IMG/VR virus record: IMGVR_UViG_3300020429_000529
Coordinates: 326,762-390,761 of that record
Reading direction: 5' to 3' (one strand)
DNA: 64,000 bases
From: a virus
Part shown: piece after piece, positions 3,359 through 56,982 of the stretch
Layout: every line of letters starts with the position of its first letter
How positions within the stretch are numbered: position 1 is the stretch's first letter
Program-made: the position numbers and the translations under genes
Notes under the pieces: model-generated
What the model saw: only the letters and a program-made list of their open reading frames with translations
Database searches by the model: none
Told to the model about the DNA's origin: nothing

Positions 3359-3430
3359 ACCTCGGTAGCTCAATTGGCAGAGCAGCAGACTCTTAATCTG
3401 TGGGTTGTGGGTTCGACTCCCTCCCGGGGT
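3359..3430 (+). tRNA. tRNA-Lys(CUU)
   Basis: acctcgg/ccggggt acceptor, tagctcaattggcagagca D-arm, anticodon arm gcaga-CUCUUAA-tctgt. Confidence 0.8.
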
Positions 3431-3437
3431 ACTTTGA

Positions 3438-3509
3438 CGGGTCCGAAGCATAGGAGGAGATGCACCTGGCTCTTAACCAGGAGAAGAGGGTTCGAATCCC
3501 TACGGACTC
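3438..3509 (+). tRNA. tRNA-Lys(CUU), second copy
   Basis: gggtccg/cggactc acceptor, anticodon arm cctgg-CUCUUAA-ccagg, T-loop TTCGAAT. Confidence 0.75.
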
Positions 3510-3600
3510 ATTTGAAACAGGTCGAAAGCAATCAGTTAACAAGTTCAAATCCTGTATTCCCCACTTCAACAACTCTTGGGGAATTGCCTATTGGAGGCAC
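3510..3600 (+). other. degenerate tRNA-like region (T-arm-like acaagTTCAAATcctgt + attcccc upstream of a GGGGAAT acceptor-like 5' piece)
   Basis: The pieces resemble tRNA parts in the wrong order; no complete cloverleaf found. Confidence 0.25.
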
Positions 3601-3628
3601 CTGAAAGCACCAACATACCTGTTTTGTT

Positions 3629-3702
3629 TCCTCAGTAGCTCAGTTGGTAGTAGCGAATGGCTGTTAACCATTAGGTCGCTGGTTCGAGCCCAGCCTGAGG
3701 AG
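3629..3702 (+). tRNA. tRNA-Asn(GUU)
   Basis: tcctcag/ctgagga acceptor, anticodon arm aatgg-CUGUUAA-ccatt, T-arm gctggTTCGAGCccagc. Confidence 0.85.
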
Positions 3703-3832
3703 TTTAGAGAACGAGTCGAAGAGGCTTCGGTTATCACTTTGATTTTGATTCAAAATGCCCAAAGCGCCTGCCTGTAAAGCAGGAAATGCTGGGGGTAAAA
3801 ACACCGATCTTCACCCCATATTCGTTCTTGTT

Positions 3833-3920
3833 TCTGAGGTAGCCGAGTGGTAGCAGGCGTCTGACTGTTAATCAGAAGGGAGTCACATCCCCGTCGTTGG
3901 TTCGAATCCAACCCTCAGAG
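3833..3920 (+). tRNA. Ser-like class II tRNA body with anticodon GUU (Asn codons)
   Basis: tctgagg/cctcaga acceptor, Ser-type D-arm gcc-gagtggtagca-ggc, anticodon arm tctga-CUGUUAA-tcaga, 19-nt variable arm, T-arm gttggTTCGAATccaac. Confidence 0.6.
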
Positions 3921-11210: not shown

Positions 11211-11388
11211 TGAGGAACCGCAAGGGCGGAGATTGTACGAACCATGAAGACCATGACCTCAACAACCGGGCATATGACAACGACCCAAAGCGGCGGAAGC
11301 TGCGGCGGTACGTCGTCTTGCGCCATGGCTGGGTCTGGCCCTTCTGGTCCGTAATACTGCACGGACAAGCACGGAAGAGGATACCAGA

Positions 11389-11418
11389 GCCCCAGCCTAC
11401 GAAGGTTGGGGCTTTTTT
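11389..11418 (+). terminator. rho-independent terminator
   Basis: gccccagcctacgaaggttggggc hairpin followed by TTTTTT. Confidence 0.7.
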
Positions 11419-11434
11419 CATTGACAGACATTTT

Positions 11435-11518
11435 GAGGGTGAAGTCTATTCGGCATGACGCCTGCCTTCCAAGCAGGAGAGCGAAAGCTCATTGCGGGTT
11501 CGAATCCCGTCACCCTCT
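11435..11518 (+). tRNA. class II-like tRNA with anticodon UCC; variable arm carries a GCGAAAGC hairpin
   Basis: gagggtg/caccctc acceptor, 3-bp D-stem, anticodon arm cctgc-CUUCCAA-gcagg, variable agagcgaaagctcatt, T-arm gcgggTTCGAATcccgt. Confidence 0.55.
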
Positions 11519-11543
11519 TTAGACAAACCAGAAGACTTCGGTC

Positions 11544-11567
11544 TTCGACCTCTTTGACAAGTGAATA
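11544..11567 (+). promoter_or_regulatory. recurrent motif TTCGACCTCTTTGACAAGTGAATA, copy 2
   Basis: 23/24 identical to 1813-1836; immediately upstream of the RNase P RNA-like element. Confidence 0.4.
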
Positions 11568-11593
11568 GAGACGATTTGAAAGACTTCTCTTAA

Positions 11594-11841
11594 CGAGAGA
11601 AAGGCAGCCGATCCATCGCTCTATCCGCCCCTGCATTCTGCATGCGGACGAGAGGAAGGTCGGGGCACCACTGCTAACAAGGTAGGAGACGGACCTGCGC
11701 AATGCGGGCGAGTTGCTTGGACTACCGAGGGTGCAACCTCATGCAGGCTGAGCGGGTGAGCAGCGCTATGAAGCCGGGTCGAGGGCCATTAGAGAAATGA
11801 TGGAATAGAACAGAACCCCGCCTACGGGCACTTTTCTCTCG
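11594..11841 (+). ncRNA. rnpB: RNase P RNA (rnpB)-like element, reduced size (about 250 nt)
   Basis: gagaggaaggtcggggcacc resembles P4 5' strand GAGGAAAGUCCGGGCUCC; acagaaccccgcc resembles P4 3' strand ACAGAACCCGGCU; terminal P1-like pairing cgagagaaag/cttttctctcg; no ORF. Confidence 0.45.
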
Positions 11842-11846
11842 TTTTT

Positions 11847-11919
11847 GCAGGTATCGTATAGTTGGTTATTACATCACGTTGCCAACGTGAATACGTCGGT
11901 TCGAATCCGGCTACCTGCA
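11847..11919 (+). tRNA. tRNA-Gly(GCC)
   Basis: gcaggta/tacctgc acceptor, anticodon arm tcacg-UUGCCAA-cgtga, T-arm gtcggTTCGAATccggc. Confidence 0.8.
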
Positions 11920-11927
11920 TTTGATTC

Positions 11928-12260
11928 TTATCGATCGTGCAAATAGCGGAAATCTACAAGCTCCGCAAACGGAACCGTAAACTCTGTTTGGTTGTCTGTT
12001 AGATTCCCGCTCATTATTTGCGACGGATCGAATCGGTATTTTCCCAAGACTTCTTGAGGGTCTTCTGGATCATCAGATCCATGGGAGTAATACTCGATAA
12101 CGTAGTTTGGATCAAGACTCAAATATAGGCCTCCTGGCTTTCTGTGAACAGAGCCAGCCTGAAGAGGAAAGCCATCGAGCGTTTGCCCTTGTTCATTGAG
12201 GGTCATGACTCTGTAGCCTATATTCTGCTGCGATTGTTTGAGCAGTTTGTACCAGTTCAT
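11928..12260 (-). CDS. hypothetical protein
   Basis: 110-aa minus-strand ORF convergent with 12339-12614; no conflict with tRNAs. Confidence 0.4.
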   Translation of the reverse strand: MNWYKLLKQSQQNIGYRVMTLNEQGQTLDGFPLQAGSVHRKPGGLYLSLDPNYVIEYYSHGSDDPEDPQEVLGKYRFDPSQIMSGNLTDNQTEFTVPFAELVDFRYLHDR

Positions 12261-16324: not shown

Positions 16325-17068
16325 ATGATAGACTTTGAACGAGGCGCAAAAGCCACAGGTACAAAGTTCTACTTTCTGACAGGCAACGATGCCCTCAGAG
16401 AGTTGCAACTCTGTATGAAGATGATCGAGTTTCATGCCGAACGAGGATACGAGCCGGTCATTCCGCCGTATCTCGTCAACAAGAAGACATGCGAGATGGC
16501 TGGTATCCTTCCTCGCTTCGAGGGAGACTTCTACGAGACGCAGGACGGGTTCGTTCTGATTCCGACCGCAGAAACGCCCCTCGTCGGTTTTCGCGCCAAC
16601 GAGATCATCCCCGAAGAAGAACTCCCGCTCAAGTATGTCGCCTTCTCGCCCTGTTTCCGCAGAGAGGCTGGCGCAGCGGGGAAGAAGGACAAGGGCCTCA
16701 AGAGGGTCCACCAGTTCCACAAGATCGAACTGTTCGTCATCTGCAAGCCCGAAGACTCGGAGCGGCTCCATGAGGAGATGACGGCTCAGGTCGAAGAGCT
16801 TCTTGATGAACTGGGCGTCGAGCATCGAAGGATCGAGCTTGACGAGAACGATCGTCCCCCAACGTCGGCCAAGACGTATGACATCGAGGTTCGAGCAGGA
16901 GAAGAATGGCTTGAAGTCTCTTCGATCTCGAACACGCTGGATCGGCAGGCAAAGCCCGCTCAGATCCGTTATCGGCCACGACCGCAGGCGAAACCCGTCA
17001 AGTGTCATATCTTGAACGGTTCGGGTGTCGCGCTGCCTCGGCTGACTCTTGCGATGTTGGGTGGATGA
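16325..17068 (+). CDS. seryl-tRNA synthetase catalytic core (class II), lacking the N-terminal tRNA-binding arm
   Basis: GAAGGAGAC RBS; GTKFYFLTG...GYEPVIPPYLV, FSPCFRREAGAAGKKDKGLKRVHQFHKIELF (motif 2) and the GSG motif region; the ORF starts about 25 nt after a tRNA. Confidence 0.75.
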   Translation: MIDFERGAKATGTKFYFLTGNDALRELQLCMKMIEFHAERGYEPVIPPYLVNKKTCEMAGILPRFEGDFYETQDGFVLIPTAETPLVGFRANEIIPEEELPLKYVAFSPCFRREAGAAGKKDKGLKRVHQFHKIELFVICKPEDSERLHEEMTAQVEELLDELGVEHRRIELDENDRPPTSAKTYDIEVRAGEEWLEVSSISNTLDRQAKPAQIRYRPRPQAKPVKCHILNGSGVALPRLTLAMLGG

Positions 17069-27212: not shown

Positions 27213-27972
27213 TCTGATCTATGGGAACTACAAAGTTCTCTCGCCTGAAAACCAAGTCATGTTCAGGTGCAACAAGAAGCGATACAACTGGTATCTGCAA
27301 AGAGGTCTGGCCGAGGAGATCGGGGACAAGACTATCCGTCTGACGTTCACTCCGAACGGCGGAGGTTACGCCAAGAACTCGTTCTACACGCAGGACCGAG
27401 AGAATCGTTGCGTGATCTGCGGGACGAGAGAATCCCTAACCAGGCACCATGTTGTTCCTCATTGCTATCGCAAGCACTTCCCGGAAGATCTCAAGCGCAA
27501 TAACTTTCATGACATCTTGCCTGTTTGTCTTGATTGCCATGAAGAATACGAGAGCAACTATTCGCTTCAGATGCGCAAGCGTTTGGAGAAGAAGTATGAT
27601 GCGCCGTTGCAGGGCAGGGGCTACACCGAAGCGGATGATGACTATCTGCATGCTATCCGTTTGGCTGGATGCTTGATCGATTATGGAGATCGCATACCAG
27701 AAAAGCGACAAGAAGAGATGAGAGAGATCATCCGAGGCGCTACAGGCAAGGAAGTTGACGAACGTCTTCTGATTGAGTTGGCAAATGACAAAGTGAAGAA
27801 GCTCTCACGAAGCGAGCATTTCTGTTCGCATGGCGAGCTTGTTATGGATCAGGTCGAAGATATTCAATCATTCGTGGAGGAATGGCGGCTCGATTTTCTG
27901 GAGAATATGGAGCCGAAGTACCTTCCGAAAGGCTGGAAGGTCGATATGCCTGTAGACCATCACCTTGTATGA
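27196..27972 (+). CDS. HNH endonuclease domain protein
   Basis: CVICGTRESLTRHHVVPHCYRKHF...CLDCHEEYE is an HNH/zinc-finger nuclease signature. Confidence 0.6.
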   Translation: MTRATDLIYGNYKVLSPENQVMFRCNKKRYNWYLQRGLAEEIGDKTIRLTFTPNGGGYAKNSFYTQDRENRCVICGTRESLTRHHVVPHCYRKHFPEDLKRNNFHDILPVCLDCHEEYESNYSLQMRKRLEKKYDAPLQGRGYTEADDDYLHAIRLAGCLIDYGDRIPEKRQEEMREIIRGATGKEVDERLLIELANDKVKKLSRSEHFCSHGELVMDQVEDIQSFVEEWRLDFLENMEPKYLPKGWKVDMPVDHHLV

Positions 27973-29468
27973 CGAACATCGACTACAAAGATGACGAGCT
28001 ATTCGAAAGCTCTTTCATGTTCTCCAAGATTGGCAAGTGTCTTGTCTCTCTTGAGGGACGTTTTCTCAAGGTAAATCCTGCGCTCTGTTCTATTCTCGGG
28101 TATTCTGAGAAAGAACTGCTTTCGATTACGTTTCAAGAGATCACGCATCCAGACGATCTTGACATAGATGTAAAGCAGGTAAAAAGATGTATAGCAGGAG
28201 AGATATCAACTTATTCTCTTGACAAGAGATACATCAAGAAGAATGGCAAGGTCGTTTGGGCTGAGTTGAATGTTGCAATCACGAAGAGTCCGTCACGGGA
28301 TGACTTCTTTATCGTTGAAGTTGTCAACATTCAAGACAGAAAGACTCAAGAGAAGCTGCTTCTCAAGCATGAGGCATCTCTAAGAGACTACAGAGATAGG
28401 TTGGAGATTGCGCTTGATGCAAGTCAGATAGGTATTTGGCGATGGTATCCCGAAGAGGACAAGCTCGAATGGGATGACCGTATGTTTGAGATCTTTGGAG
28501 TTGAACGAAATGAGTTCACTGGTAAAGTTAATGATTGGCGTCTGACTGTTATCGAAGAAGACAGAGCCAAAGCGTTTTCGTATGTATTGGAAAGCGTACA
28601 GAAGGGTTTGCCATTCGAGACCGAGTTTCGTATCTATCGCAAAGGCGAGGTTCGCTATATCGCTGCCTATGGCCTTCATGACATAGACAGCACGGGCGAA
28701 GTAATCAGCATGATCGGCGCAAACTACGATATTACTGATCTGCGAATCGCTGAACAAAACCTGATACGATCAAACGTAGAACTTGAGAAGTTTGCGTATG
28801 CTGCCTCTCATGATCTCAAAGAACCGCTTCGGACAATCGGCGGTTTTGCTACGTTGTTGAACAGCAATCATAGGGAGAAGCTTGATGAGCAAGGACAGAA
28901 GTTCCTTGACTTCATTCTGCAAGGCTGTCAGAAGATGCAGTCTCTCATTGATAGTCTGTTGAACTACTCGAAGGTTGATAGGAGGCTTACTGAAGGTTTC
29001 CAAGAAGTCGATATGAGGGCAAAAGCAAAGAAGGCTTGCGAGTACCTGATTGCAAAGATTAGCGAGGTTGATGCAGATGTTGTTTGGGAGGAAGATCTAC
29101 CTGTTGTTTGGGCTCATCCCGATCTCATGCTACAAGTTGTTTTGAACCTTGTTCACAACGCTCTCAAGTTCCGTCATCCTGATCGCAAATGCAAGATCAG
29201 CATCAACTGGGAAGATTTGGGGCACTTGTACCGATTCAATATCACAGACAATGGGATCGGCATCGAAGAAGAGTATCAGGAGCAGATTTTCAGCCTGTTC
29301 CAAAGGCTTCATGACAGGTCTATGGAGGGATCAGGTATGGGGCTTGCTCTTTGCAAGAAGATCATAGGAAGCTTCGGCGGTCAGATATGGGTCGAATCCG
29401 AATACGGGAAGGGTTCGAAGTTTAGCTTCACGATTCCAAAGGGGAGGGGAGAAAATGAGGGTAGCTGA
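27969..29468 (+). CDS. PAS-domain sensor histidine kinase
   Basis: ATGA overlap; PAS repeats, H-box HDLKEPLRTIGGFATLL, HATPase_c region with GSGMGLALCKKI. Confidence 0.8.
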   Translation: MTNIDYKDDELFESSFMFSKIGKCLVSLEGRFLKVNPALCSILGYSEKELLSITFQEITHPDDLDIDVKQVKRCIAGEISTYSLDKRYIKKNGKVVWAELNVAITKSPSRDDFFIVEVVNIQDRKTQEKLLLKHEASLRDYRDRLEIALDASQIGIWRWYPEEDKLEWDDRMFEIFGVERNEFTGKVNDWRLTVIEEDRAKAFSYVLESVQKGLPFETEFRIYRKGEVRYIAAYGLHDIDSTGEVISMIGANYDITDLRIAEQNLIRSNVELEKFAYAASHDLKEPLRTIGGFATLLNSNHREKLDEQGQKFLDFILQGCQKMQSLIDSLLNYSKVDRRLTEGFQEVDMRAKAKKACEYLIAKISEVDADVVWEEDLPVVWAHPDLMLQVVLNLVHNALKFRHPDRKCKISINWEDLGHLYRFNITDNGIGIEEEYQEQIFSLFQRLHDRSMEGSGMGLALCKKIIGSFGGQIWVESEYGKGSKFSFTIPKGRGENEGS

Positions 29469-30796: not shown

Positions 30797-33544
30797 ATGC
30801 AAGGTCACGATGACAGCGGAAGGGGCGGAACTCGCGGGGATCTACTGATCCCTCCGGGCTCGTATGCCTATTTCCAGTCAACGCAGAACGGTTCGATTTC
30901 GACGAAAGTCGGACCAACCAATGTCCCCTCGTCGGGTAACGAAAACCCGATCAAGTTCGATCCTCAATCGAGGAGATTCACTTCCTGTACGCCAGACCAG
31001 GCGATGCAGACAACAATTCGCGCAGGCGAGAATGATTACATCATCCTCGAAAATCCCTGTCTTCAGGGCGGCGAACTCGTCTTCCCCGGCACCAACAAAG
31101 ACAAGCTGCCCGAAAACGGCTTGGAGATGGGACGGCGAGTTGTTGTTCATGGACCTGTCTCTTTCGCGCTGTGGCCGGGCCAAGTCGCAACGGTTGTCGA
31201 GGGCCACGCTCTTCGGACCAACGAATACCTCGAACTGCGGGTCTACGACGCCGAAGCTGCGAAGAAGAACTGGTCCGAGGCCTCGGTAGTCGCTGCCTCG
31301 GCAACGACCGATACGGGAGGACAGGGCGGAGGACAGGGCGGTTCAGGCGGGGAGGATGACCAAAACGCTGGCTCTGCGGACGCTACTTCTGCTGACAAGG
31401 CTGGCGCTGCGGTGGTAAGCGGAGAAGTTCCTGACCTTAGAGTCGGTCAGCGGCTCATCATCAAGGGCACGGATGTCAGCTTCTACATGCCTCCGAGCGG
31501 TATCCAGGTTGTTTCCAGCGATGGAGACCGAACCTATGTTCGCAGCGCTGTCTCTCTCGAACTGCTCGAATACACGATCCTTGTTGATGAGTCGGGCGAC
31601 AAGCGATTCGTCCAAGGCCCTGCCGTTGTCTTCCCCGAGCCCACGGAGACTTTCTTCACGAAGAACGACACTCGGAAGTTCCGAGCGATCGAGCTTCAGG
31701 AGCAGGCTGGTCTTCATCTGAAGGCGCTCAAGGATTTCACCGACGAGGGAGGCAAGCAGCGCAAGGCTGGCGATGAATACTTCGTCACGGGCAAGGAACG
31801 ACCCATCTACTACCCGAGAGAAGAGGAAGCGATCGTTCCTTACGCCGAGGGCGAGCGAGTCCACTATGCCGTTGCGGTTCCCAAGGGAGAGGGCCGCTAT
31901 GTCATGGAGAAGGACTCGGGCGAGATCGATACTCGTACCGGACCCGAGATGCTTCTCTGCGACCCGACCGATGAAGTCATCGTTCGCAGGATCCTGACCG
32001 ATCGACAGTGCGAAGATTGGTATCCCGGCAACGATGCCGCTCGACGCTATAACGCCAGTCTGCGATCGATTCAGGAAGCTGCTGGTTCTGCTCGGAGCGA
32101 TGTTGTTTCCGATTCGGTCACTCGGAGAGCGGCAACTAAGGGCGTCAGTTCGTTGAGGTCTATCGCTCGTCGGGGCGAGGGCCTTGAGTCGCTGGCGTAT
32201 GCCGCTGCGGGCGAAGAATCCTTTGGGGCTGCGGAAGAGGCGGGTTCTGCCGTTCTCGAAGAGTTCGAGCGTAGGGGGAACTTCACTCAGCCCAAGAGTA
32301 TTACGCTCGACACCAAGTTCGAGGGCGTGCCGACGATCGAGCTTTGGACCGGCTACGCCGTTATGGTCGTCAACAAGAGCGGCGACCGTCGCATCGAGGT
32401 TGGTCCGACCACTCTTCTTCTCGACTACGACGAATCGTTGGAGATCATGGAGCTTTCGACCGGCAAGCCCAAGTCTACCGACACTCTGCTGCGAACCGTT
32501 TACCTCCGAGTTCAGAACAACAAGGTCTCGGATGTCATCGAAGTCGAGACAAGCGATCATGTTCGAGTCAAGGTCAAGGTTTCGTTCCGAGTCAACTTCG
32601 CTGAGAGCAACCCGAACAACGCTGAAGACAAGACTGACTACAAGACCCGTTGGTTCGCTACCGAGAACTATGTCAAGCTGCTCTGCGACCATGTTCGTTC
32701 TGTTCTCAAGGGCGAGGTCAAGAAGCACTCGATCTCGGAGTTCTACGCCACGGCGACGGCGACGATTCGAGATATCCTTCTCGGCAAGAGAGCGGAAGGA
32801 ACGGGTCGTCCTGGTATGTTCTTCGACGAGAACGGCATGCACGTCGTTGATGTCGAAGTTCTCGCCACCGACATCGAAGATCGAGAGATCAGCGCTTTAC
32901 TGATCGGCGCTCAGCGAGAAGCTGTCGAATCCAACATCAAGGTCGCTGCTGCCAAGCGTCAGCTTGAAACGACGACCAGCATGGAGGATATGGCTCGTCA
33001 AGAGGCCACGGCTCGCGAAGCGACGAAGAAGCATGCTCATGATCTGCAACTCGCTGAGTTCCAGCGAGATCTCACTCGTTCGCTCGATCGGATCAGGTCC
33101 GAACTCGAAACCCATCAATCGAACAAGGAAGTCATCGAGGCTCGCATCGCCAACGGCGACATCGAGGCTCAGGCGGAGCTTGTTCGCGAGAAGGCTCGAC
33201 ACGACCAGTTGATCGAGCAGAAGAAGGCGGAGCAGGAAATCGAACTCGCCAAGCTCAAGGCCGAGGTCGATGCTGTCAAGGAACGCTTCGGCGCTCTCGA
33301 CGACAGCAACCTGCCCGAGATGTTGGCGGTTCTCAGCAGAGAGGACATGCTGACTCGTATCGCTACGGCCTCGTCTTGGCAGACTGTCATCGGCGGTCAG
33401 AGCCTCGACGACGCTCTCGGCGGTATCTTCGGACCTGACTCGCCTGTCGCCAAGATGCTCGCCACGCTCAAGGCTGGCTCCTCGATCGCTCCTGCGGTCA
33501 TCGGCAGCAGTCGAACGGCGGCAAGGGCTGGCAGCGAGGACTGA
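30797..33544 (+). CDS. major vault protein (MVP) homolog
   Basis: 915 aa. The N-terminal LLIPPGSYAYFQSTQNGSISTKVGPTNVP matches the MVP repeat VIRIPPYHYIHVLDQN...VEVGPKTYI; there are several further MVP-type repeats; an SPFH/shoulder-like segment RTVYLRVQNNKVSDVIEVETSDHVRVKVKVSFRVNF; and a long C-terminal coiled coil like the cap helix. Confidence 0.8.
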   Translation: MQGHDDSGRGGTRGDLLIPPGSYAYFQSTQNGSISTKVGPTNVPSSGNENPIKFDPQSRRFTSCTPDQAMQTTIRAGENDYIILENPCLQGGELVFPGTNKDKLPENGLEMGRRVVVHGPVSFALWPGQVATVVEGHALRTNEYLELRVYDAEAAKKNWSEASVVAASATTDTGGQGGGQGGSGGEDDQNAGSADATSADKAGAAVVSGEVPDLRVGQRLIIKGTDVSFYMPPSGIQVVSSDGDRTYVRSAVSLELLEYTILVDESGDKRFVQGPAVVFPEPTETFFTKNDTRKFRAIELQEQAGLHLKALKDFTDEGGKQRKAGDEYFVTGKERPIYYPREEEAIVPYAEGERVHYAVAVPKGEGRYVMEKDSGEIDTRTGPEMLLCDPTDEVIVRRILTDRQCEDWYPGNDAARRYNASLRSIQEAAGSARSDVVSDSVTRRAATKGVSSLRSIARRGEGLESLAYAAAGEESFGAAEEAGSAVLEEFERRGNFTQPKSITLDTKFEGVPTIELWTGYAVMVVNKSGDRRIEVGPTTLLLDYDESLEIMELSTGKPKSTDTLLRTVYLRVQNNKVSDVIEVETSDHVRVKVKVSFRVNFAESNPNNAEDKTDYKTRWFATENYVKLLCDHVRSVLKGEVKKHSISEFYATATATIRDILLGKRAEGTGRPGMFFDENGMHVVDVEVLATDIEDREISALLIGAQREAVESNIKVAAAKRQLETTTSMEDMARQEATAREATKKHAHDLQLAEFQRDLTRSLDRIRSELETHQSNKEVIEARIANGDIEAQAELVREKARHDQLIEQKKAEQEIELAKLKAEVDAVKERFGALDDSNLPEMLAVLSREDMLTRIATASSWQTVIGGQSLDDALGGIFGPDSPVAKMLATLKAGSSIAPAVIGSSRTAARAGSED

Positions 33545-34767: not shown

Positions 34768-35118
34768 GGGGGTGATATGGAATCGACCGAATGATGTAGG
34801 TTGATGATCGCGAGTCGGGGATGCATGCTCAGGCCCCGTTATCAAGGTATGCACAAATTAGTTGCCAACAGCAACACCCTCCGCATGGCTGCTTAATCAG
34901 CCTGCTCGCAACCCGAAGACACCGATATTCGGGAAGCGAAAGACCATCGGGTTAGGCATCGTCTTCAACGCCTGAGGATTCGATGACCGAAACTAAAAGG
35001 GCTGCTCCGAAGGTCATGCTGTCGCTGGCAGGACTGAGGCTAAGATAAATCAGCGAATACACTCGTAGAGGTCTCTGCTGACCCATTCGACACCGGGGTT
35101 CGAGTCCCCGCACCTCCA
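34768..35118 (+). ncRNA. ssrA: tmRNA (ssrA), tag reading frame ANSNTLRMAA*
   Basis: The 5' end GGGGGUGAUAUGGAAUCGACCG resembles the tmRNA consensus GGGGCUGAUUCUGGAUUCGACGGG. The 3' end ccgggguucgaguccccgcaccucca pairs with the 5' acceptor with G3:U70. The internal ORF gcc aac agc aac acc ctc cgc atg gct gct taa gives the tag. Confidence 0.8.
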
Positions 35119-35126
35119 CTTCAGAA

Positions 35127-52535: not shown

Positions 52536-52826
52536 ATGAGGGAAACGATTGTTGTCAGCGGCGAACCTGATGCAGAGCAGAAGCGCTGTTACGATTGTTT
52601 CTACATGCGAGGGGCCTGTTCTTGGTGGTGCAAAAACGAAGAAGCCATCAAGTTCAGAGGAACCAGAATCCCTGGAGTGAGGGAATGCAAGTTCTGGAAA
52701 CCGGCTCGAAAAGTGTCTGATCTCAGCATGGGCGAACGGTTAGCCTTCCATCTTGACGTACTTGGGCTTGGTTTTGTGCCACTGACGATCGAAGCGTCGG
52801 AGCAAACAGAGACAACGCCTCAATAG
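52536..52826 (+). CDS. Cys-rich hypothetical protein
   Basis: 96 aa with CYDCFYMRGACSWWC; its TAG stop is the U8-A9-G10 of the suppressor tRNA. Confidence 0.4.
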   Translation: MRETIVVSGEPDAEQKRCYDCFYMRGACSWWCKNEEAIKFRGTRIPGVRECKFWKPARKVSDLSMGERLAFHLDVLGLGFVPLTIEASEQTETTPQ

Positions 52827-52888
52827 CTCAATTGGCAGAGCAGCGGGCTCTAACCCCGCGGTTGGGGGTTCAAGTCCCCCTTGAGGCA
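52817..52888 (+). tRNA. amber suppressor tRNA (anticodon CUA, reads UAG)
   Basis: gcctcaa/ttgaggc acceptor, D-arm tagctcaattggcagagca (same as tRNA-Lys(CUU) at 3359), anticodon arm gcggg-CUCUAAC-cccgc, T-arm gggggTTCAAGTccccc. Confidence 0.8.
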
Positions 52889-52892
52889 TTCG

Positions 52893-53060
52893 ATGAAGAA
52901 GACAGTTGTCAAAGTCGAAGTTGAGATCTGCTACGATCCTGATGCAGATGCTCCGATTGAGTTCGAAAACGAACGAGACATCGTGGAGCATTTCGCTTCT
53001 TGCGTCATCGGCAATGATTTTGCGTCAGTTTCAATTCTCTACGAGGGCGAGGAGTTTTAG
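52893..53060 (+). CDS. small hypothetical protein (55 aa)
   Basis: ATG 5 nt after the tRNA; acidic sequence that reads better than the overlapping ORF-track ORF 52906-53151. Confidence 0.4.
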   Translation: MKKTVVKVEVEICYDPDADAPIEFENERDIVEHFASCVIGNDFASVSILYEGEEF

Positions 53061-53062
53061 TT

Positions 53063-53419
53063 ATGGGCTTCAGCTATTCAGTTTACTGCGGACCTGCGAT
53101 CGTCATTCTCGACAATGGCGAAAAAGGGCCGAGTTGGTACGATGTCTCTGAAGCTACAGATGAACGCCTGTCTGAAAGCAGGATTGAAATCCGCAAAGAC
53201 AACGAGCCTCGCTACTTCATCCCGAACATCGGAGGCTACGGGAAAGACATCGACCCGAGAGAAAACACCGATGTCTCTGTCGTTGAGATCGATAAGATCG
53301 AAAAAGACATCAACAAGTTCGAATCAGAGTTCAGCGCTGATATCGAGAAGGTCAAGAGCATGTTCCCAGGAGAAGGTCGGGTCGCCATCAAGTGGGTGAT
53401 CCTCAGTGATGCGAGATGA
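53063..53419 (+). CDS. hypothetical protein
   Basis: GAGGAG RBS; 118 aa. Confidence 0.55.
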   Translation: MGFSYSVYCGPAIVILDNGEKGPSWYDVSEATDERLSESRIEIRKDNEPRYFIPNIGGYGKDIDPRENTDVSVVEIDKIEKDINKFESEFSADIEKVKSMFPGEGRVAIKWVILSDAR

Positions 53420-53826
53420 CATACGACCCGACCCAACCTGCGGACATCCATAATCCTCTGCCTCAGTCGCAATGGCCGATCAGAGAGGGGAAGGCGGTTG
53501 TTTGTATCGATCCTCGTTCGGATGATCGACTGACTATTGTTGACGAGGCAAAAGTCAGGTTCTACAATCCTGCAACGCATGGCAGTATGGTGGTTACAAA
53601 GGGTAGGCCCTTTTTTACCATTGAGTTTGGTGGAACTGCTCAGGTTGTTGACGCCAACAATGTCTTTCCTGACAACCAGACAGGTCGCAAGCAGTTGTTG
53701 AGCCGCCGAGCCCATTTGCTGAGAGATCTCGCCCAGAGGAAGCGAGAGGCTGCGCAGCGCATGCTGGATAGGGCGGACGAGTTGGACAGAGAAGCAATCC
53801 TCAATGAGAAATCGAGCCGAGCATGA
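53416..53826 (+). CDS. hypothetical protein
   Basis: ATGA overlap; 136 aa. Confidence 0.5.
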   Translation: MTYDPTQPADIHNPLPQSQWPIREGKAVVCIDPRSDDRLTIVDEAKVRFYNPATHGSMVVTKGRPFFTIEFGGTAQVVDANNVFPDNQTGRKQLLSRRAHLLRDLAQRKREAAQRMLDRADELDREAILNEKSSRA

Positions 53827-54233
53827 GCGACCAGATCAACTTCCGTATGCCTCGCGTCTTTGTTGGAGGCCCTTGGACCAAACCTGATCCTTTGGCGAAT
53901 GTCAATGCAACGCTCAAGTTGCGATCCGATATTCAAGCCGCAGGCACGGTCCATACGGTTTGCTCGATGTGCGATACCTTCCTTTGGGGGACGGTCTACC
54001 CGAGCAACTACGAAGAGCAAACGATGTTCTGCTTGCATGAACTGGCAAGCTGCGACATCGCCGTTTTCCGTCGAGGCGAATCTTCGGGTAGGGATCGAGA
54101 GATTCAGATCTGCAACGACCTCGGTATTCCAGTTTTCTGGGAGGGCGAACTGCGGGGCTTTTGGGATCTGGTCAAGGAGTACCAGAACGGCGAGAAGACG
54201 CCCAAGTGGGCAATGCAACTGCAAAGGGTCTAA
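53823..54233 (+). CDS. hypothetical protein (possible nucleoside 2-deoxyribosyltransferase-like fold)
   Basis: ATGA overlap; PRVFVGGPW...DIAVFRRGESSGRDREI. Confidence 0.45.
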   Translation: MSDQINFRMPRVFVGGPWTKPDPLANVNATLKLRSDIQAAGTVHTVCSMCDTFLWGTVYPSNYEEQTMFCLHELASCDIAVFRRGESSGRDREIQICNDLGIPVFWEGELRGFWDLVKEYQNGEKTPKWAMQLQRV

Positions 54234-54236
54234 ACG

Positions 54237-54920
54237 ATGGGAGCCACAGCCGTAGCCAGTTCGAACGATGTCAAGAGCGTCATGGTCGGAAAGAACATGG
54301 CTCCTGTTGGCGTGGCTCCGTCCATTGTCCTCGAAGACCCCAAGTACGCCCGCAACGTTTCGCAGATCGTCCGTCTGGCGTCTGGATATGACATCAATCA
54401 GGTCTTTTTCACGGGCAATCGAGTCAGCTTGACAGACCCGACAAAGAACCTTGATGGGCGAAGCGGTTCTCGCACGAAGAAGGGAGCGGGCAAGGCTCGT
54501 TTGCCTCGCGAGGAGCGGATGAAGGGTTATCAGAAGGTTGACATCTGTCATCATGACAGGCCCTTTGATTGTTTCTCATCAGGTATTCCTGTCATTGGCA
54601 TCGAGCTTCGAGAAGGCGCTCTGCCTCTGCATCAGTTTGAGCATCCCGAAGAAGCCATCTATGTCTTTGGACCCGAAGACGGCAGCATCAATCGACTGTC
54701 TCGACAGGTTCATCAGTTTGTCGTTATCCCGGTTGCGCATTGTTTGAATCTTGCCACAGCGGTTTCGACAATTCTTTGGGATCGCAAGCGTCAGCTTATC
54801 GAGCGAGGTTTGCTACCTGATCTTACGATGGATGAACTGCTTGTTGGAGACCGAGCAAGTCTTCGCATGCAGGACTTTGAGTCTGATGACATGCTGTTTG
54901 ATGGAGGGGGCAAGCGTTGA
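54237..54920 (+). CDS. SpoU/TrmH-family RNA 2'-O-methyltransferase (SPOUT)
   Basis: YVFGPEDGSINRLSRQVHQFVVIPVAHCLNLATAVSTILWD matches the SpoU C-terminal knot motifs. Confidence 0.7.
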   Translation: MGATAVASSNDVKSVMVGKNMAPVGVAPSIVLEDPKYARNVSQIVRLASGYDINQVFFTGNRVSLTDPTKNLDGRSGSRTKKGAGKARLPREERMKGYQKVDICHHDRPFDCFSSGIPVIGIELREGALPLHQFEHPEEAIYVFGPEDGSINRLSRQVHQFVVIPVAHCLNLATAVSTILWDRKRQLIERGLLPDLTMDELLVGDRASLRMQDFESDDMLFDGGGKR

Positions 54921-55633
54921 TTCTACATCTGGTACGACATGGAGAGTCGCAAGCCAATACGGGAGAAATCCCTCATGGCAGTATCGGCGACCACAAGGTT
55001 CCCCTGACCGAGAAGGGCAAACAGCAGGCTCGTTTCCGAGGCGCTGCGCTTCGAGATGCTGGTTTTGGTCTTGACGAAGATTACCTGATCTATTGTTCTC
55101 CGTATCGTCGGGCGAGAGAAACTCTTGCCTGCATACTTGAAGGTAACGGGATTGCCGATGCTTCGAAGGTCACGGTCTACGAAGATCCTCGACTACGAGA
55201 AGTTGACCATGGCTATAGCGATGTAGCAGCGCAAGATGCGATGCGCGCTGAACATGGTTGGTTCTATTATCGATTCAAGGAAGGCGAATCGCCTGCTGAT
55301 TGTTTCGATCGTTGCTGCACGTTCCTTGAGAGTCTAAAACGTCAGGTCTATCGTAAGTTTCCTCCTGTTCCGGCAAGTTTGCGTTTGAGTCTTAGCGGCC
55401 CCGATCGTCCTCGGCGAGTCCTGATTGTCTCTCATGGGCTTACGCTTCGGTGCTTTGTTACTCGCTACATGCACTTGACTGTTGAACAGTTCGAGACTTT
55501 GGCAAACCCGCATAACTGCGATCTGATTACTATTACTCCTCATGAAGGAATGAAAGACCCGCAGTTTATAAGCGGTCGATGGGGTATTGAAGGTCTTCGA
55601 TTTAGGGGCTCTTCGAACAGGAGCGAAGCATGA
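54917..55633 (+). CDS. histidine phosphatase (phosphoglycerate mutase family)
   Basis: TTGA-overlap TTG start; LVRHGESQAN...SPYRRARET...IVSHG motifs. Confidence 0.8.
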   Translation: MILHLVRHGESQANTGEIPHGSIGDHKVPLTEKGKQQARFRGAALRDAGFGLDEDYLIYCSPYRRARETLACILEGNGIADASKVTVYEDPRLREVDHGYSDVAAQDAMRAEHGWFYYRFKEGESPADCFDRCCTFLESLKRQVYRKFPPVPASLRLSLSGPDRPRRVLIVSHGLTLRCFVTRYMHLTVEQFETLANPHNCDLITITPHEGMKDPQFISGRWGIEGLRFRGSSNRSEA

Positions 55634-56028
55634 AGCTCTTTGTCCCTCCTCTTAAGACCGAACTCAAGCTAACGTCTGCATGGACGTTTGACCTGCATCA
55701 CGAACATCGCAACAAGAAGATGTTCGAATTCATGAACCTCGATTACACTAACCCTTGGCAATGGAGAAGGGGGCATGACGATCGTTGGGGTCGTTTGCCT
55801 GATCCTGTTTCTATCAAGTTGCCGAAGGGTACTGTTCTGGTTGTTGATCGAATCTACATTCGTCAGCAAGCGGAGGACTTCGACAGCATCACGTTCCGAA
55901 TCAAGAGTTTTCCGGGCAAATCTCCGAGCGGCAAGAAGACTGCTCGTTTCTGGGCAAAGCTCGATGACTGTAATGGTATAAACGTTCAAGTTCTTACCGG
56001 CGAAGAATCGCCCAAGGAGAAGGTATAA
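55630..56028 (+). CDS. hypothetical protein
   Basis: ATGA overlap; 132 aa. Confidence 0.5.
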   Translation: MKLFVPPLKTELKLTSAWTFDLHHEHRNKKMFEFMNLDYTNPWQWRRGHDDRWGRLPDPVSIKLPKGTVLVVDRIYIRQQAEDFDSITFRIKSFPGKSPSGKKTARFWAKLDDCNGINVQVLTGEESPKEKV

Positions 56029-56032
56029 GCCC

Positions 56033-56323
56033 ATGAAAATTCAAGCCGCTAATGCCAAGACTCTTCTTGACCTGCAAACAGAGAAGAGTGTTGTAGAGGG
56101 CTATGTCAAGAAGCTGCAAGAGCTTCTTGATTCTGATGGAGAGTTCTCTATCTGCGTCAGACACGACAGATACTACGGCAGCGAGCGCGATTGCAGTTTT
56201 GACCACTACAACTACGGCATGACATTCCCGAGAGAATCTCGCTTCATTCAGCCTATGATCGAACACTGGAAGGCAAAGCTTCGGGAGGTCGAACAGAAGA
56301 TTGATCGATTGGCGGTGGTTTGA
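56033..56323 (+). CDS. hypothetical protein
   Basis: 96 aa. Confidence 0.5.
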   Translation: MKIQAANAKTLLDLQTEKSVVEGYVKKLQELLDSDGEFSICVRHDRYYGSERDCSFDHYNYGMTFPRESRFIQPMIEHWKAKLREVEQKIDRLAVV

Positions 56324-56916
56324 TGGCGGTCTTGACTGAACAACGGCTCAAGGAGCTTCGTCTGGTTTCTAATCGAGTTGTACGAGCGAAGGACTTTGCT
56401 CGTACAGCCCATCAGGGGCAGACAAGAGATGACGGCGCGGAATACTTCTCTCATCCGTCGAGAGTTGTTGATCGAGTTCGAGGTTACTCGGGCGACGAGA
56501 ACACCATCTGCGCCGCATGGTTGCATGATACGATCGAGGATTGCGAGGGCGTTACTTCGGAGATGCTGCAGGATCTCTTCGGTTCTCAGGTTACGAGCAT
56601 CGTTGAAGAACTGACGCTCCCTGAGATTCCTTCTAAGATCAGTCCTCCTCATCGGTGGCAATACAAGACGGATCTGCTCGTCAAAAAGGCAGGCACGATG
56701 TCTAATGAGGCGAAGCTGGTCAAGATTTGCGACCGCATTGACAACTTGAATTCTGCGATGACGGATTGGAAGCCCCGTCGTCTTGTCCGTTACGCTATTC
56801 AGGGCTGCAAGATGCTGGAAGCTATGCGCCCTCTCGATCCGATGCATCAGCAAGCTGCAAACGACCTGCTCTTTCTGATCGCTCAGATCTTGATCGAAAA
56901 CCAACAGTCCTCGTAG
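56323..56916 (+). CDS. HD-domain phosphohydrolase (RelA/SpoT-type HD)
   Basis: ARTAHQGQTRDDGAEYFSHPSRVV...AAWLHDTIED motifs; its TAG stop is the tRNA's U8-A9-G10. Confidence 0.7.
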   Translation: MAVLTEQRLKELRLVSNRVVRAKDFARTAHQGQTRDDGAEYFSHPSRVVDRVRGYSGDENTICAAWLHDTIEDCEGVTSEMLQDLFGSQVTSIVEELTLPEIPSKISPPHRWQYKTDLLVKKAGTMSNEAKLVKICDRIDNLNSAMTDWKPRRLVRYAIQGCKMLEAMRPLDPMHQQAANDLLFLIAQILIENQQSS

Positions 56917-56982
56917 CTCAGTATGGCCAGAGCCGCCGACTCTAAATCGGTGTGAGCGCGGGTTCGAGTCCCGCCGAGGACG
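56907..56982 (+). tRNA. amber suppressor tRNA (anticodon CUA), second copy with a different body
   Basis: gtcctcg/cgaggac acceptor, D-stem gctc/gagc, anticodon arm gccga-CUCUAAA-tcggt, T-arm gcgggTTCGAGTcccgc. Confidence 0.75.

Follow-up and report, generated by a model that had tools for sequence, protein, structure and literature searches.

Ribonuclease P is, as far as we know, regarded as an enzyme of all cells, to which phages contribute substrates. Engineered minimal bacterial RNase P RNAs (Micro P, or the isolated C-domain together with the protein) measure ~200-260 nt, and some activity is left in constructs without P12-P14, P16-17 or P18, so that reduction of this kind is compatible with catalysis; contacts to the tRNA elbow normally come from the specificity domain. 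Bacterial P RNAs are typically 340-420 nt long, and the GGU of their L15 loop pairs with the 3' RCCA of the tRNA (PMC4919922). Among natural reduced forms, the minimal RNase P RNA of Pyrobaculum (type T/P; Lai et al. 2010, via PMC4919922) is described as roughly 200 nt long. The only viral precedent that we found is the RNase P-like RNA of camelpox, a eukaryotic virus; it is related to the nuclear H1 RNA and is discussed in a review as a possible decoy. In phage T4 the tRNA cluster has very short spacers and CCA-less genes, and its precursors need RNase P; CCA-less dimeric precursors are cut efficiently only once CCA is present (PMC11143913). In the full-text literature open without subscription, no report of a bacteriophage-encoded RNase P RNA was found, and the RNase P reviews of 2016 and 2024 do not mention a phage-encoded version.

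Here we analyse a 64,000-nt window, part of a 498,610-bp contig, which carries an RNase P RNA-like element next to tRNA genes. From its sequence and predicted fold, the element is probably a reduced bacterial type-A RNase P RNA gene of a very large phage-like genome, catalytic on the phage pre-tRNAs. Like bacterial type A (RF00010; E. coli M1 RNA), it has the order P1-P6, P15-P17 with the same two pseudoknots, the bulged U of P4, the AA of J5/15, the GGU of L15/16 and the conserved regions CR-I, CR-IV and CR-V. Unlike bacterial type A, it is ~250 nt long, is devoid of P8, P9, P13, P14 and P18 and lies in a tRNA array of a phage-like genome. The Pyrobaculum form is likewise natural and keeps the catalytic domain while most of the specificity domain is gone, but it comes from archaea and has several archaeal proteins as partners; the phage RNA differs from it in being plainly a bacterial type-A RNA, which has P6, P15-P17 and the GGU loop, and in retaining a stem, an internal loop and a P12 remnant. 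Archaeal type A is also without P13/P14 and P18 (PMC4919922), and the phage layout, in which a short strand, P12 and a longer strand are enclosed by the stem, is similar to the P10/11-P12 core of archaeal and eukaryal RNAs. However, archaeal type A has P7-P9, and archaeal type M is without P6, P8, P16 and the L15 loop, whereas P6, P16 and the GGU loop are kept in the phage RNA. The engineered minimal RNAs are laboratory constructs, while the phage form is natural, widespread and maintained and shows another deletion pattern. The camelpox RNA, although virus-encoded, shares neither sequence class nor context with a bacterial-type phage RNA embedded in a tRNA array. Finally, T4 uses the host enzyme, in contrast to the phage with this element, which carries its own RNase P RNA gene.

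Results

Identification of a reduced RNase P RNA gene

A sequence-only reading of the segment had proposed a reduced RNase P RNA-like element, perhaps a minimal or novel variant or else a decoy, and had named beforehand what would refute it, namely the lack of a covariance-model match and of a consistent P4 pseudoknot. In a 401-nt search of positions 11500-11900 at a permissive threshold, the bacterial class A model RF00010 aligned over its full length (model 1-367) with 11599-11840 (55.5 bits, E 1.8e-16). The score is below the RF00010 gathering score of 100 bits, and the gathering-mode Rfam scan of the window gave no RNase P match. This shortfall is explained by 110 model positions being represented by 25 nt and 23 positions by 1 nt, and by a 12-nt gap before CR-V. 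Thus, judged from the alignment, the resemblance to RNase P RNA is real and the RNA is strongly reduced. In cmscan with clan competition RF00010 was the best model for the element, ahead of RF02357 (Pyrobaculum-type minimal) and RF00011 (type B). The element has the type-A features P6, P15-P17 and GGU; the helices specific for type B are P5.1, P10.1 and P15.1. Covariance model R1 located the element at 143.5 bits. A leave-one-out model (R2), built from other phage members only with the window copy excluded, returned it as the sole match in the 64-kb window (130.6 bits, E 7e-37, model 1-199); since the window copy was found by a model built without it, the identification is not circular.

The details given in the sequence-only reading were largely borne out. 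Both quoted P4-like strands, GAGAGGAAGGUCGGGGCACC (11650-11669) and ACAGAACCCCGCC (11810-11822), lie where it had placed them, and the terminal P1-like pairing comprises 11 bp between C11594-G11604 and C11831-G11841, or 13 with A11592/A11593 and U11842/U11843. The segment is GC-rich (59.3% G+C versus 51.5% for the window) and ORF-free in that it holds just mechanical ORFs, a 94-aa TTG ORF on the minus strand overlapping a tRNA gene and a 32-aa ORF. The P4 bulged U (U11660) and the AGGA of J3/4, for which it had suggested a check, are both there. Together with the full-length RF00010 match, the consistent, covarying P4 pseudoknot described below supports the proposed element. The TTGACA motif, described as conserved and located at 11544, is actually at 11554-11559 and has no -10 partner. 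Its reading as a promoter was dropped, as a promoter scan of 11300-12000 yielded no sigma-70 site; TTGACA occurs 30 times on the plus strand of the window against ~16 expected. A single-sequence minimum free energy (MFE) fold (z = -1.89) mis-paired the specificity-domain region and was set aside in favour of comparative analysis. The spacer between tRNA-Gly(UCC) and the ribozyme contains a hairpin, GAAGAC-UUCG-GUCUUC (11531-11546), which was flagged by the terminator scan on the minus strand only; on the plus strand it lacks a U tract.

Anatomy of the window copy

Coordinates of the element, its parts and the flanking tRNA genes in the 64,000-nt window
Feature	Position	Strand	Description
tRNA-Gly(UCC), upstream	11435..11518	+	84 nt, long variable arm; 75-nt spacer to P1
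Reduced RNase P RNA gene	11592..11843	+	~250 nt, out to the outer limit of P1
Covariance-model core	11602-11835		Part matched by model R1
P1 5' strand	11594..11609	+	Outer 11 bp 11594-11604; internal loop C11605/A11606; inner 3 bp 11607-11609
P2	11612..11617 with 11799-11804	+	UCCAUC with GAUGGA
P3 hairpin	11619..11652	+	CUC/GAG base, UCCGC/GCGGA, UGCA/UGCA tip; length varies in the family
CR-I	11652..11665	+	GAGGAAG, J3/4 AGGA, P4 5' strand AGG[U]CGGGG, bulged U11660
P5	11666..11669 with 11730-11733	+	CACC with GGUG
P6 pseudoknot	11671..11675 with 11759-11763	+	CUGCU (J5/7) with AGCAG (P17 loop)
Vestigial specificity domain	11681..11726	+	5-bp stem 11681-11685 with 11722-11726
Inside the specificity-domain stem	11686-11721		GA 11686-11687; P12-like hairpin 11688-11714; 7-nt strand GCUUGGA 11715-11721
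J5/15	11734..11736	+	CAA
P15-P16-P17 arm	11737..11784	+
P15	11737-11741 with 11779-11784
P16	11746-11749 with 11772-11775
P17	11751-11754 with 11764-11767
J16/15	11776-11779		GGGU, predicted CCA-binding loop of L15/16
P18 position	11785-11789	+	GCCAU only, no P18
CR-IV	11790-11799	+	UAGAGAAAUG
J2/4 and CR-V	11805..11815	+	AUAGAACAGAA; CR-V itself 11810-11815
P4 3' strand	11816..11823	+	CCCCGCCU; pseudoknot with 11657-11665, 8/8 pairs canonical
P1 3' strand	11827..11841	+	Inner segment 11827-11829 pairs with 11607-11609; then U11842-U11846
tRNA-Gly(GCC), downstream	11847..11919	+	Starts 5 nt past the end of P1; spacer of five U

All catalytic-domain helices (P1, P2, P3, P5, P15, P16 and P17) and the P6 pseudoknot are present in the window copy, in which every pair is canonical apart from the internal loop of P1. 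As in the RF00010 class, the P4 pseudoknot with its bulged U forms between CR-I and CR-V (ACAGAA). According to both the RF00010 and the family alignment, P8, P9, P13 and P14 are absent from the element. Of the full specificity domain (the P7-P10 four-way junction with P8 and P9, P11, J11/12 and P12-P14) only the 5-bp stem, GA, the P12-like hairpin and the 7-nt strand are left; it is here that 25 nt stand for 110 model positions, and J11/12 is cut down to GA. At the place of the P18 hairpin, between P15 and CR-IV, 1 nt stands for 23 model positions. Because the full specificity domain, P18 and a score above the curated threshold are all lacking, we file the element as a reduced variant and not as a plain RF00010 member. 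Its CR-I reads GAGGAAG(U/G)UC instead of GAGGAAAGUC, the third A usual in bacteria being a G; since GAGGAAG(U/G)UC is also found in some cellular RNase P RNAs, the change is unlikely to be disabling.

Covariation supports the fold

The structure was drawn on one member and projected onto a 26-sequence MAFFT alignment, in which 91.9% of cells are paired, compared with 65.1% after shuffling and 30-49% when the partners are slid, and both-sided changes occur at 49 of the 58 pairs. Pairing was 93.7% in a 44-sequence model-guided alignment and 93.6% in an independent set of 67 sequences, chosen neither by the model seed nor by the CR-IV/CR-V pattern, against 64% in shuffles. Across the three alignments, compensatory changes were found at 45-49 of 55-58 pairs. 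P1 covaries at 8/8 pairs, P2 is 97-100% paired with 4-6 covarying pairs, and P5 is 99% paired. The long-range P4, the fold of which the sequence-only reading had singled out for checking, is 97.9-99% paired with compensatory changes at 5-6 of its 8 pairs, and P6 is 82-92% paired with covariation at 4-5 of 5 pairs; both pseudoknots were left out of the covariance models. The specificity-domain stem (90-92%) and P12 (91-97%) are likewise paired throughout, and P15, P16 and P17 all covary. RNAalifold, given the alignment alone, recovered P1, P3, the long-range P4, P5, the specificity-domain stem and P15-P17, with compensatory changes at 34 of 39 pairs.

GAGGAAG and the P4 bulged U are invariant in alignment A1; in alignment A5 both were fixed by its search pattern, so that A5 is not independent for them. 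J5/15 is CAA in 40/44 members, with the AA invariant in alignments A1 and A4. J16/15 reads GGG in 34 of the 44 members, AGG in five and UGG in three, and GG is kept in 43/44. The CR-IV core, once freed of search-pattern bias, is AGAnnnAUG, and in the set retrieved without CR-V this region is, among the matches listed, ACAGAA in 44, ACAAAA in 18 and ACAGGA in 6. The comparison of more than 110 distinct relatives shows strong selection for the fold.

Relatives in phages and metagenomic viruses

Relatives of 187-330 nt were found at at least 136 loci on viral contigs. When deposited phage genomes were searched with blastn, matches to part of the element were obtained in two huge, curated phages, LR756502 (642 kb) and LR756511 (595 kb), whose P4 strands are unlike those of the window yet still complementary. 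A first IMG/VR pattern scan, keyed on CR-IV and CR-V, retrieved 78 loci, 58 of them full-length elements and many on 200-500-kb contigs. BLAST with a compact member led in addition to the likewise curated 735-kb phage LR756501 and to the cultured T4-like Stenotrophomonas phage DLP6, in which the match (KU682439.2 105776-106017) lies in an unannotated 258-nt gap within the tRNA cluster; RNase P is not mentioned in the DLP6 paper. BLAST with the copies of L021 (described below), DLP6 and the 735-kb phage gave self-matches or nothing, as the method is too insensitive for this RNA. A second IMG/VR scan, which relied on CR-I, J5/15 and the GGGU loop alone, added at least 78 full-length members, at least 67 of them distinct, of 187-275 nt (median 221 nt).

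The reduced family as a whole spans the same 187-275 nt, and its members differ in size mainly through P3 and P12 and through small hairpins where P18 would lie (L044, L057, L007, L020, L068, L081 and L082). One locus, L021, is a true RF00010 match (191 bits, 330 nt) with P8, P9, P10-12 and P18; as this near-complete type A RNA shares the signature motifs of the family, the members form a graded series from near-complete to minimal. Another, L001, scored best against RF00373 (32.4 bits), a point in common with archaeal RNase P RNAs. Most members fall below Rfam thresholds or go undetected, and hence are missing from phage annotations, including those of a cultured phage and of the largest published phage genomes. 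In the cellular-genome collection, the matches listed were mostly chance matches or ordinary cellular RNase P RNAs, such as the type-A RNA of a Bacteriovoracaceae locus (229 bits), and among them only three short, phage-like contigs scored as members. Family matches on contigs binned as bacterial MAGs are L094, L105 and L191. The element belongs to a large and apparently undescribed family of reduced RNase P RNAs inside the tRNA gene clusters of big bacteriophages.

Other structured RNAs were noticed at two of these loci. L191 carries GOLLD RNAs at 2318-2764 and 3423-3902 (182 and 155 bits), within a few kb of tRNAs and of a 5'-truncated family RNase P RNA (L191 1-136). An unannotated permuted tmRNA (RF04321, 136.8 bits; RF01850, 103.7 bits) lies in the same tRNA region of DLP6 as the element (KU682439.2 ~102792-103065; L081 2822-3095).

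The element is embedded in same-strand tRNA arrays

The window contains 45 tRNA genes, all on the plus strand, at 1093-26111 and 52817-56982; at Rfam gathering thresholds 42 tRNAs and a tmRNA are found. Redundancy is heavy, for example 5 Gln, 6 Thr and 6 Arg. Across 60 family loci, 567 tRNA genes lie on the same strand as the element and none on the opposite one, and at the 78 further loci the numbers are 820 and 1 among the matches listed, giving 1,387 versus 1 for both sets among those matches. A tRNA starts no more than 30 nt downstream of the element at 16 of the 60 loci and at at least 29 of the further 78. None of the 42 window tRNA genes matched by Rfam encodes CCA, and in each of them UU or CUU comes after the discriminator base; these uniform U-rich trailers suggest RNase Z-type 3' processing followed by CCA addition.

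Several further features of the arrays were recorded. Oversized tRNAs in the window are Gly-UCC (84 nt), Lys (85), Asn (90), Arg (84 and 92) and Cys (85), and ARAGORN assigns a two-base anticodon to the tRNA at 1093-1163. The tmRNA gene (34768-35121; RF00023, 119 bits) encodes the tag peptide ANSNTLRMAA, and tmRNAs occur near the element also in L021, L039/L079 and L072. Two amber suppressors, tRNA(CUA), are present at 52817-52888 and 56907-56982, and suppressor tRNAs were found in many family loci. An in-frame TAG (59649) breaks a reading frame at ~59523-59888, which by eye is peptidyl-tRNA hydrolase-like and has tblastx matches in loci from 370-494-kb viral contigs; this suggests TAG read-through, at least locally. 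HNH-type endonuclease genes, recognised by eye from their motifs, lie in the tRNA arrays of 6/44 loci (for instance L066 1465-2128, L057 6464-7298 and L020 4547-5102), and L020, L058 and L068 have in common a protein that by eye resembles the RNA 2'-phosphotransferase Tpt1/KptA.

Discussion

Proposed function and protein partner

The data show homology to RNase P RNA, a P1-P6 and P15-P17 fold with both pseudoknots and a same-strand position in tRNA arrays. For the family as a whole we favour, with somewhat less assurance than for the window copy, the reading that an active RNase P RNA of bacterial type, miniaturised to 187-275 nt, is encoded by large bacteriophages themselves and would mature their tRNA arrays, probably with host RnpA or protein-free. 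The element would be co-transcribed with the neighbouring tRNAs. Since tRNA-Gly(GCC) starts 5 nt past P1, cleavage by RNase P at the 5' end of this downstream tRNA would set, and free, the 3' end of the ribozyme. As the catalytic subunit, the RNA would then remove the 5' leaders from phage tRNA and tmRNA precursors, with P4, J3/4, J5/15, CR-IV and CR-V as the predicted active site and the GGGU loop as the predicted holder of the tRNA 3' end. The retention of GGGU beside CCA-less tRNA genes parallels the situation in T4 and implies either that CCA is added before cleavage or that the loop may form G-U pairs with the UU trailers. The likely benefit would be an extra or host-independent maturation capacity for dozens of phage tRNAs during infection. 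The presence of the family in the tRNA clusters of big phages suggests that these supply part of their tRNA-processing machinery themselves.

A gene for the protein subunit was not found. In tblastn searches, which have limited sensitivity for the small, divergent RnpA, the E. coli and B. subtilis proteins gave nothing below E 0.6 in the window, and E. coli RnpA matched only contaminant- or prophage-like entries among 50,697 phage records, with neither huge phages nor DLP6 among them. Furthermore, no conserved neighbouring protein that might serve as a phage cofactor was seen at 44 loci. As neither a phage rnpA nor a conserved neighbour was found, host RnpA is assumed to be the likeliest partner. 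Because P8, P9, P13 and P14 are gone and J11/12 is reduced, the tRNA-elbow module is probably missing; contacts to the elbow would be mostly lost, and substrate binding may be weak unless extra factors assist it.

Alternative readings

This near-loss of the specificity domain, which implies that elbow recognition is weak or supplied otherwise, is the main reason for keeping a rival explanation, namely that the RNA is a non-catalytic decoy or regulator, an RNase P RNA mimic that captures host RnpA or pre-tRNAs and so shuts down or redirects host tRNA processing. The low RF00010 score and the lack of a detected phage rnpA would fit such a role as well. However, a protein sponge needs no full active-site set, whereas P4 with its bulged U, J3/4, the CAA of J5/15, CR-IV, CR-V, P6 and GGGU are conserved or covary across more than 110 sequences. 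Moreover, the same family includes a near-complete type-A form (L021), and the strict same-strand embedding in tRNA arrays fits a role in processing. Since the RNA still has every one of its active-site and substrate-binding elements, the decoy is disfavoured and we consider it unlikely.

A second alternative concerns the carrier, which might be a small cellular genome or a large extrachromosomal element with this RNA as its only, streamlined RNase P RNA. Capsid, terminase and other phage structural genes were not found in the window, nor was a hallmark gene in the 10 kb past its right edge, and 10 window ORFs had no matches in PHROGs. The contig is 499 kb long, and a few family matches are on MAG-binned contigs (L094, L105 and L191). 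On the other hand, complete, curated phage genomes and a cultured T4-like phage carry members of the same family, and the MAG contigs have a phage-like look, being short tRNA arrays or lying beside GOLLD RNAs. The window itself combines 45 redundant same-strand tRNAs with two tRNA(CUA) suppressors, an in-frame TAG and fragmentary aminoacyl-tRNA synthetase (aaRS) genes, and neither ribosomal genes nor any other housekeeping genes were found in ~84 kb. From this gene content we infer that a huge phage is the best reading of the window; a non-viral origin appears very improbable.

Finally, that the RNA is a decaying, non-functional remnant of an rnpB gene which the phage acquired from a host, as its large internal deletions relative to type A and an MFE z-score of only -1.89 might suggest, is scarcely credible, since all helices of the window copy are intact, the same modules are deleted across lineages no more than ~71% identical, and compensatory changes at 45-49 pairs speak for long-term selection for the fold.

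Significance

If the favoured reading, an active phage-borne RNase P RNA, is true, bacterial viruses would for the first time be known to have an RNase P ribozyme, which would also be smaller than any other natural RNase P RNA of bacterial type. It would add a ribozyme to the translation genes of huge phages (tRNAs, tmRNA, aaRS). The family would also be a natural experiment on the limits of size reduction in bacterial RNase P RNA and on substrate recognition without tRNA-elbow contacts. The cultured phage DLP6 offers a direct experimental route to the likely catalytic function.

Other genes of the window

The window also encodes a 915-aa homologue of the eukaryotic Major Vault Protein (30797-33544) with MVP shoulder and Vault repeat domains, which has no relative in IMG/VR; 11 contigs of 0.2-1 Mb carry the same protein. 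A SpoU-family RNA methyltransferase (54237-54920) and a class II aaRS core fragment (16325-17068) are present, and a HisRS-like fragment lies just past the window edge (L204 18359-19042). Unusual cargo for a phage-like genome includes a protein with a PARP catalytic domain and WGR (44620-46278) and a PAS histidine kinase with two response regulators after it (27882-29468).
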